From: Escherichia coli
GTDB taxonomy: Bacteria; Pseudomonadota; Gammaproteobacteria; Enterobacterales; Enterobacteriaceae
Length of the DNA stretch: 64,000 nucleotides
Strand: one strand, 5' to 3'
Assembly: GCF_003334305.1 (NCBI RefSeq)
Contig: NZ_QOWS01000011.1
Both the position numbers and the translations under genes were made by a program. This document shows positions 35,321 through 36,275 of this stretch, one piece after another. The notes below the pieces were generated by a model that saw only the letters and a list, made by a program, of their open reading frames with translations, had not been told where the DNA came from and did no database searches. Every line of letters begins with the position of its first letter. The stretch's first letter is position 1.

Positions 35321-36275
35321 ATAATTTGTTGCACAGGACAAATATATCTGGCTTCTGTACAGAGTCTTAAATTTTGACCATAAATAAAACCGTCCCTGTC
35401 AAGCATGCATAGTTTATCAAGTAGGTCTCCCACAAACTGCCTGAATTTTATTTTTCCATTAAAAGTTTGTATCTTCTTAAGTATCACAGGAGACTGGAAA
35501 TAGACCGATAGTAGGATGTTGCCACTCAAGGCATGACGATAAATATCGCTAGGAGTAATTTTTTGTTTTATGGCTTTGGTAGTGATCTCAACTGCTTCCG
35601 TTATAGTGACCCATGTTGACATATAATGAGTTATAAGCAATGGCTGATATTTTTTTGACATAATATTATCTCCTTCTACACAACAATTCGTTCCGTTAAG
35701 GAAAAAGATTGGTGTCACAAGTATTTATTTATGATTAATCAGAGGGTTTATGACAGAGAAAAGGATGTATATTTCTGAGTAAACATGTACAGGCCTATGG
35801 GGTGACTATTTAATGAGTAAATGCCGAATGATTTTCGGGGTGATGATTATAACTTGAGGAAAAATCCCAGCGTGGTTTGAGTAGTGTACCTGAGTGATAT
35901 TTGTGTTATGTATGCATTGATTGCAGCAGAATAAATATAGTTCAGGCTAGTATAGTTTATGGTAGCTATGAGAATATATAATCTATTTTACCTATAAAAT
36001 AATTTATATGTATGGGGTTGTTTTTTTAGGTTGTTTGTCTGTGCTTTTATATTCTGGAGATGTGCCTTGTATATAGGATTGTTTGTTGGTTGTATTTTTT
36101 AATGTTGCACTGTTGTGAATTTTTATTTTGATATGATTATTTCTTTAGTATAAGGAGAGAAAGGAACGAGAAAGTTAAATCTATTTATCCTAATCGCAAT
36201 TTCATTGTTTAAATAATCACTATGGATTAATATTTTTTGCGACTCTGCTGAGTTACTGGTTTTAACTAGTGGTGT

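Follow-up and report, generated by a model that had tools for sequence, protein, structure and literature searches.

In the window, as we call the whole stretch of 64,000 nucleotides analysed here, the minus strand leads from fyuA through an AT-rich spacer into an open reading frame (ORF) that ends within a decayed yeeJ gene (Table 1). Its start is well marked. A sequence-only reading of this DNA had pointed out a strong ribosome-binding site (RBS) and an ATG at 35661, and these are borne out: AAGGAG is separated from the ATG (35661-35659) by 8 nt, ATAATATT. From this ATG the frame begins MSKKYQPLLITHYMSTWVTITEAVEITTKAIKQKITPSD..., runs for 249 codons and closes at a TGA (34914-34912). About 115 codons of AT-rich DNA foreign to yeeJ had been described at its 5' end; the composition stands (36% GC over 353 nt), and the length has to be corrected to 117 codons and 2 nt, as the lower boundary, set at 35330, fell 22 nt short of the true one at 35309. 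GC content is 29-37% from 35309 to about 36300 and 50-57% in the flanks on both sides. Between fyuA and yeeJ, alpA and virB genes are absent. The yeeJ locus itself is found between the asnT side and a glycosyltransferase-9 gene with shiA, as in K-12.

Three tRNA-Asn (GTT) genes, at 22635-22710, 25044-25119 and 26868-26943, are also present in the window, flanked by ORFs of ordinary length. They are presumably asnW, asnU and asnV, alternative attachment sites of this island family. The left end of the island, where the occupied asnT and the integrase would be expected, is beyond base 64000.

Table 1. Features at the fyuA-yeeJ junction of the window, and orf308 copies in other loci (positions of those loci).
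Feature	Position	Strand	Remarks
Hairpin GGGAUACC-GAAAA-GGUAUCCC, then UUUUAC	36273..36307	minus	directly after the fyuA stop (36312-36314)
Spacer fyuA-orf308, AT-rich, G-poor	35676..36272	minus	inherited from the ICE; near-identical to the ICE copy
Shine-Dalgarno sequence AAGGAG	35675-35670	minus	read from the sequence; identical in the ICE copy
ICE-derived part of the ORF	35661-35309	minus	117 codons + 2 nt of orf308 (WP_000039781.1), including the ATG
A7 homopolymer, codons 2-4	35650..35656	minus	hotspot of a +1 frameshift (A8)
Deletion junction	35308	minus	single shared G: third base of orf308 codon 118, yeeJ nt 276
In-frame yeeJ part	34986..35307	minus	yeeJ nt 277-607 (codons 93-203), native yeeJ frame; linker and start of barrel
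Out-of-frame tail, 24 codons + TGA	34912..34985	minus	blastn map against intact yeeJ, and translation
Decayed yeeJ remainder, Ig-like repeat region	32854..34985	minus	outside the ORF; further internal and 3' deletions
orf308 in L002 (NZ_CM142667)	8960-9886		
orf308 in L004, L005, L007	7001-7927/7945		
orf308 in L018	1485-2534		

The 5' part of this frame might be a chance ORF, as the sequence-only reading had itself considered, lying in AT-rich non-coding spacer and preceded by a purine run that happens to resemble a Shine-Dalgarno sequence. It does lie in AT-rich DNA adjoining a pseudogene, and its 117 residues find no sequence match in Pfam, NCBIfam or the PDB. Nevertheless, only 2 of 20,000 shuffles of the 353-nt stretch remain open and each of the other five frames holds 7-12 stops; the open frame is therefore not a product of chance. 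Moreover, a conserved gene of 308 aa, for which more than 340 homologues exist, begins with this stretch, which together with the shuffle test refutes the idea of a chance ORF and leaves it next to no probability.

The origin of the 5' part had been called unknown, a description that no longer holds. When positions 34700-36400 were compared by megablast with 5,426 complete E. coli genomes, HPI-negative genomes matched only query positions 1093-1415, which correspond to yeeJ, with an identity of 91-93%. In one genome, NZ_CM142667, the match ended at query position 1099; this genome carries an intact ICE of the ICEEc1/ICEKp1 kind. There, fyuA is followed directly by a 927-bp gene, orf308, coding for a 308-aa hypothetical protein (WP_000039781.1), and then by genes for AlpA-family, DUF2857, TraR/DksA and Hha proteins and for a VirB-type type IV secretion system. 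Starting at the fyuA stop, the window is collinear with this copy over the spacer, the RBS, the ATG and 353 coding nucleotides, within which 2 nt differ, both changing an amino acid (E77V, V107I); the similarity stops abruptly after ...GATACCCCCCTG at 35308. What precedes yeeJ is the native 5' end of orf308. This intact copy bears out the earlier suggestion that a lost island gene had left its 5' end fused to yeeJ, and in it the segment is coding rather than the non-coding spacer that it might have proved to be in other HPI-bearing genomes. Over residues 1-117, the stub in the window is 98% identical to orf308 and has the same RBS and upstream spacer, whereas residues 118-308, including the C-terminal block, which is the most conserved (TPLSRLFWLACKHN...PYKLLSIFEQWA...TLKTALERGSP), and the downstream alpA/xis-virB module are gone.

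The spacer (GC 0.29-0.37) differs from that of NZ_CM142667 by a handful of point differences and a 221-bp gap at about 36018, and the ORF list shows no ORF of at least 40 aa within it. The 221 bp, which correspond to L002 8382-8602, are missing from the minus strand of the window and from all 9 E. coli genomes sampled below. Imperfect A/C-rich repeats, AAAAAAACAACCC and AAAAAAAACCACCCC, border the gap on its two sides and suggest a slippage-type deletion. The minus strand of the spacer (35700-36200 region) contains 256 A, 190 T, 135 C and 69 G over 650 nt, and the plus-strand GC skew reaches +0.5. In the ICE this spacer might serve, for example, as a long leader or an H-NS target.

A three-way alignment mapped the junction; it set the window against the ICE copy and a K-12-type locus in which yeeJ follows a tRNA-Asn gene. 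As codon 118 of the ORF and codon 92 of yeeJ share 35308 as their third base, the fusion preserves the native reading frame of yeeJ, and the chimera reads …QQIIDTPL / LRKLNQFR… across the junction (junction peptide ...YICPVQQIIDTPLLR / KLNQFR...). Judging from the breakpoint itself, a microhomology of 1 nt (G) points to illegitimate recombination. The frame was earlier thought to continue into the yeeJ remnant; it does so, in the native frame, but not through the whole remnant, as it is lost after yeeJ codon 203. At this point (about 34985) a second deletion has removed yeeJ nt 608-4300 and shifts the frame, and the stop comes 24 out-of-frame codons further on. According to blastn against intact yeeJ, the remnant keeps nt 4301-4775 and 5058-6692 and has lost its 3' end; PGAP describes it in an identical genome as a frameshifted, incomplete pseudogene. 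Its longest open piece is a 652-aa ORF of decayed Ig-like repeats at 32821-34779 (minus strand), a region with a repeat-sized internal loss. Finally, the yeeJ allele of the window lacks 9 nt, AGGTTTTGA (3 codons), at 35272/35273 that K-12-type yeeJ contains, an allelic indel that keeps the frame and has nothing to do with the junction.

Could the island instead have given a new head to a working adhesin, providing promoter, RBS and N-terminus to the inverse autotransporter YeeJ? The fusion in the native yeeJ frame speaks for this, as does the PGAP name of the product, 'inverse autotransporter beta domain-containing protein'. Codons 93-203 are read in the same frame as in K-12 yeeJ, to which they are 92.5% identical in nucleotides, and they encode the periplasmic linker and about the first 60 positions of the beta-barrel. 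NCBIfam models of the inverse-autotransporter N-terminal region match ORF residues 118-226. Unlike K-12 YeeJ, however, the ORF has no yeeJ promoter and no signal peptide: the first 91 yeeJ codons, which carry the signal, are deleted, and the new N-terminus, MSKKYQPLLITHYMSTWVTITEAVE, has no hydrophobic core. The sequence-only reading was correct in noting neither a signal peptide nor similarity to the YeeJ N-terminus. The 12-strand barrel of inverse autotransporters is incomplete, the Pfam IAT_beta match (ORF residues 168-226, E 8.7e-7) covering only model positions 3-64 of 279, and the C-terminal Ig-like passenger is missing from the frame, which is lost at about 34985 and stops at 34912; what is left of the passenger lies out of frame and is riddled with deletions. 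A functional re-headed adhesin is contradicted by these three defects and appears extremely improbable.

The gene that supplied the 5' end belongs to a family of its own. In a set of 5.8 billion proteins, 343 homologues of orf308 were found at E <=0.001, and a representative library holds 349 matching cluster representatives (50% identity). As the sequence-only reading had proposed to check, the 5' part thus has homologues in Enterobacterales, more than 340 of them and about 308 aa long. Nearly all of the full-length homologues listed have 300-316 aa, and those bearing names are all 'hypothetical'; family lengths overall are around 300-350 aa. An alignment of 43 sequences contains 48 invariant columns, most of them clustered in an N-terminal and a C-terminal block. 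Residues W17, T19, E22, A23, R42, S52, Y54, F55 and S57 of the N-terminal block are all present in the window copy, which retains only residues 1-117 of the approximately 300-316 aa of a full-length member and so lacks the C-terminal block (residues 241-301). Among distant relatives, the region 13-60 of the N-terminus is the most conserved.

The position of orf308 is also conserved. It follows fyuA in ICEEc1, ICEKp1, HPI-ICEEh1 and the Y. pestis HPI (WP_000039781.1 / WP_071239280.1; PMC2801613). In ICEs of Pantoea, Enterobacter and Gibbsiella it is always the first gene of the series orf308-alpA-DUF2857-traR-(77 aa)-SLT-virB2-virB3/4-virB5..., and the cargo upstream of it is unrelated; one distant relative lies directly between a P4-type integrase and AlpA. 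The alpA/xis, DUF2857, traR and virB genes are present in L002, L004, L005 and L007 and deleted after the stub in the window. Upstream of homologues about 50% identical to orf308, an AAGG(A/T)G or ATGGAG motif occupies the site of the RBS; the rest of the upstream DNA is unalignable, and the alignment of these ICE copies reveals no conserved operator or promoter. Since the RBS is the only conserved upstream element and orf308 keeps a fixed place in the gene order, the RBS and ATG of the window are the original start site of translation of a genuine ICE backbone gene.

Sequence profiles give little indication of what the protein does. Neither orf308 nor any of the 43 family members matched Pfam, even at E <=10; NCBIfam profiles and PADLOC returned nothing for orf308; PHROGs gave a chance-level RelE match (E 0.06), and sequence and profile searches of the PDB gave chance-level matches only (USP F, E 1.5; calbindin, E 0.08). 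An AlphaFold2 model computed on the 43-sequence alignment (pTM 0.75; pLDDT about 90 for residues 17-133) predicts a beta-alpha-alpha-beta-beta topology for residues 17-64, and fold comparison of the predicted domain returned MerR/excisionase-like matches. The reading of the N-terminus as a winged helix (wHTH) is thus a prediction drawn from the modelled fold. A comparison with the MerR/excisionase wHTH proteins Xis, AlpA and TorI finds no sequence-profile support (Pfam MerR, HTH_17, Phage_AlpA), and the protein has two further domains and about 5 times the size of an excisionase. With hhalign, the orf308 family and the neighbouring AlpA family are aligned at a non-significant probability of 0.5%, and we therefore claim no sequence homology to excisionases. 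Foldseek against AFDB50 found only uncharacterised proteins of similar length, from Haemophilus, Pseudomonas, Nitrosospira, Vibrio and others. The orf308 product is a candidate accessory factor or regulator of the int/xis module.

In ICE-type contexts of Klebsiella and Salmonella, orf308 is often frameshifted, as in the protein clusters P0019 (179 aa, 205 member sequences), P0122 (184 aa, 61 contigs) and P0010. In ECOR31, the first gene after fyuA was likewise reported as a frameshifted 'hypothetical protein' (Paauw et al., 2010; PMC2801613). The frequency of such frameshifts suggests that orf308 may be dispensable for maintenance of the element.

The ICE-derived part of the ORF in the window encodes the N-terminal region of orf308 with the predicted MerR/excisionase-like winged helix. 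Its core (residues 17-64) is wholly retained, and the helix 121-133 is lost. This raises the question of whether the chimera is expressed and its winged helix still binds DNA, that is, whether the stub has been domesticated as a regulator. It could, for instance, act on the AT-rich spacer or disturb how incoming ICEKp/HPI-type elements are regulated, excised or transferred. Several features favour such a role: the native RBS and ATG are kept, the core is intact and confidently modelled, with MerR/excisionase-like matches of its predicted fold, the region best conserved among distant relatives is included, and the frame is open in most carriers. Given the very good RBS and the retained predicted core, translation of the stub is possible wherever a transcript exists. 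Against it, helix 121-133 and all downstream domains are gone, the fused barrel fragment would probably destabilise the protein, and the parent gene, for which no function is known, frequently carries a frameshift itself in ICEs (P0019; ECOR31).

Signals for transcription are scarce. Consensus scans of the minus strand between the putative fyuA terminator and the ATG, which are weak evidence in DNA of 30% GC, found no sigma-70 consensus, and the only candidate of these scans (35370-35341) lies inside the ORF; the absence of an evident promoter also counts against a domesticated regulator. The hairpin after fyuA has a folding energy of -24.8 kcal/mol (z -6.6), and none of 200 shuffles was as stable. 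It looks like an intrinsic terminator that would separate fyuA transcription from the ORF. A strict terminator scan did not list it because its T-run has only 4 T, and Rfam gave no match on 34500-36500 at E <=1. Read-through from fyuA was rejected as the main source of expression because of this strong hairpin.

Sequence variation indicates how the ORF has fared in the population. Nine genomes, evenly spread down the ranking of full-length matches, were aligned to the window. Over 2022 bp of fyuA there are 12 variable sites (8 synonymous, 4 non-synonymous); the spacer has 17 in 650 bp, the ICE-derived part of the ORF 11 in 353 bp (3 synonymous, 7 non-synonymous and one indel), the in-frame yeeJ part 4 in 322 bp (1 synonymous, 3 non-synonymous) and the yeeJ remnant 52 in 2091 bp. 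The stub is thus as variable as the non-coding spacer and about 5 times as variable as fyuA, although this test of constraint draws on few substitutions in 9 genomes, the island being young in E. coli. The non-synonymous changes include E22G and S52L, at residues that are invariant in the 43-sequence family alignment. Moreover, 3 of the 9 genomes carry an A8 instead of the A7 run, which closes the frame of ATG-35661 after 24 codons. Among 2234 E. coli records, 1279 contain the exact A7 72-mer and 542 the exact A8 73-mer, so that at least 24% of carrier records are frameshifted by +1 in this run; these counts are possibly inflated by errors of long-read assembly at the homopolymer, and A8 is linked to lineage-specific SNPs in the 9-genome sample. 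In A8 genomes, PGAP moves the start to Met14, giving a 236-aa product (WP_001323489.1), with no Shine-Dalgarno sequence before this Met14.

The frame thus remains intact in most carriers, which is a counterpoint to regarding it as a relic. Nevertheless, the frameshifts at codons 2-4, the substitutions at E22 and S52 and a variant density equal to that of non-coding spacer all weigh against a domesticated regulator, and the frequency of the frameshift together with the pattern of substitution makes a residual DNA-binding role unlikely. The ORF appears to show no sign of selection and to be decaying rather than conserved. We consider it very improbable that the chimera has been domesticated as a regulator. 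A more specific version confines the effect to strains with an intact frame, where the stub would be translated from its native RBS and its predicted winged helix would act in trans on DNA, for example in a dominant-negative or immunity-like manner against incoming ICEKp/HPI-family elements; this has, in our estimate, only a very slim chance of being correct. Were it true, the scar would not be junk but a domesticated remnant of ICE regulation, and its targets would carry a full-length orf308 beside xis.

The ORF is widespread in E. coli. A junction-spanning megablast match over at least 80% of the query occurs in 2056 of the 5426 complete genomes, and about 40% of complete E. coli genomes carry the ORF; the full-length matches among those listed are 99.3-100% identical, and the junction and ORF layout are identical in 9/9 sampled genomes. 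The exact 30-mer of the junction had no match in 100,044 species-representative genomes. In a genome identical to the window, PGAP annotates the ORF as WP_000039788.1, a protein found exactly on at least 1,000 contigs and whose 90% cluster has 2,881 member sequences. In RefSeq it is called 'inverse autotransporter beta domain-containing protein' or 'putative invasin', which is misleading because nearly half of the protein derives from an ICE gene, a signal peptide is lacking and only a sliver of the barrel is present.

The event behind this junction has been described before. According to Schubert et al. (2009; PLoS Pathog, PMC2606025), a 'unique deletion' at the fyuA (right) border immobilised the E. 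coli HPI, whose ICE-type progenitor is represented in ECOR31; this deletion was taken as evidence of one common origin and of later spread by homologous recombination. The published deletion and the window share the same arrangement, in which fyuA and a short AT-rich tail are followed directly by truncated chromosomal backbone, with loss of the right direct repeat and of all mobilisation genes. As one junction in thousands of E. coli genomes of different phylogroups, it shows no structural difference from the window, which exemplifies it. Other work treats ICEKp and the degeneration of ICEs into the E. coli HPI (Lam et al., 2018; Wami et al., 2021), and many truncated yeeJ alleles were tied to the asnT/HPI site (Martinez-Gil et al., 2017; PMC5595812). 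The ORF is thus ordinary and already known, as an instance of a published deletion and as an entry in RefSeq; the in-frame orf308'-'yeeJ fusion is not spelled out in those papers on the deletion that were consulted. Searches for WP_000039788, WP_000039781, YPO1905 and a guessed CFT073 locus tag, c2437, found no literature.

The ORF is thus a deletion scar, the 5' end of orf308 fused to a fragment of yeeJ, and very probably a relic devoid of function; its origin and the in-frame fusion are evident from the alignments, and the lack of function is the most likely reading of its variation and structure. The ancestor of the E. coli-type HPI was an ICE or HPI with fyuA, the AT-rich spacer and then orf308 at the head of the conserved backbone orf308-alpA(xis)-DUF2857-traR-SLT-virB2-virB4.... 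One illegitimate deletion with 1 nt of microhomology took away all that lay beyond codon 117 of orf308, along with the right direct repeat of the island and, on the yeeJ side, the promoter and 275 nt at the start of the gene. The two parts were joined in frame, a 1-in-3 outcome, so that the native orf308 RBS and ATG now open 117 orf308 and 111 yeeJ codons (93-203), before the second yeeJ deletion shifts the frame to a stop. The product, if made, would be cytoplasmic for want of a signal peptide, and would combine a winged-helix domain lacking its last helix with about 60 barrel residues unable to fold. We infer that the strong RBS and ATG are present by descent, not by selection.

The same event would have cost the island its excision/transfer module and attR, fixing it in the chromosome, and would have inactivated yeeJ. 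The junction marks precisely the one deletion by which the yersiniabactin island became immobile in E. coli and yeeJ lost its activity, and the A7/A8 run with its nearby SNPs could serve as markers of island lineages. The remaining biological thread is orf308 itself, a conserved gene without a Pfam family that adjoins the excisionase gene of ICEKp-type elements.
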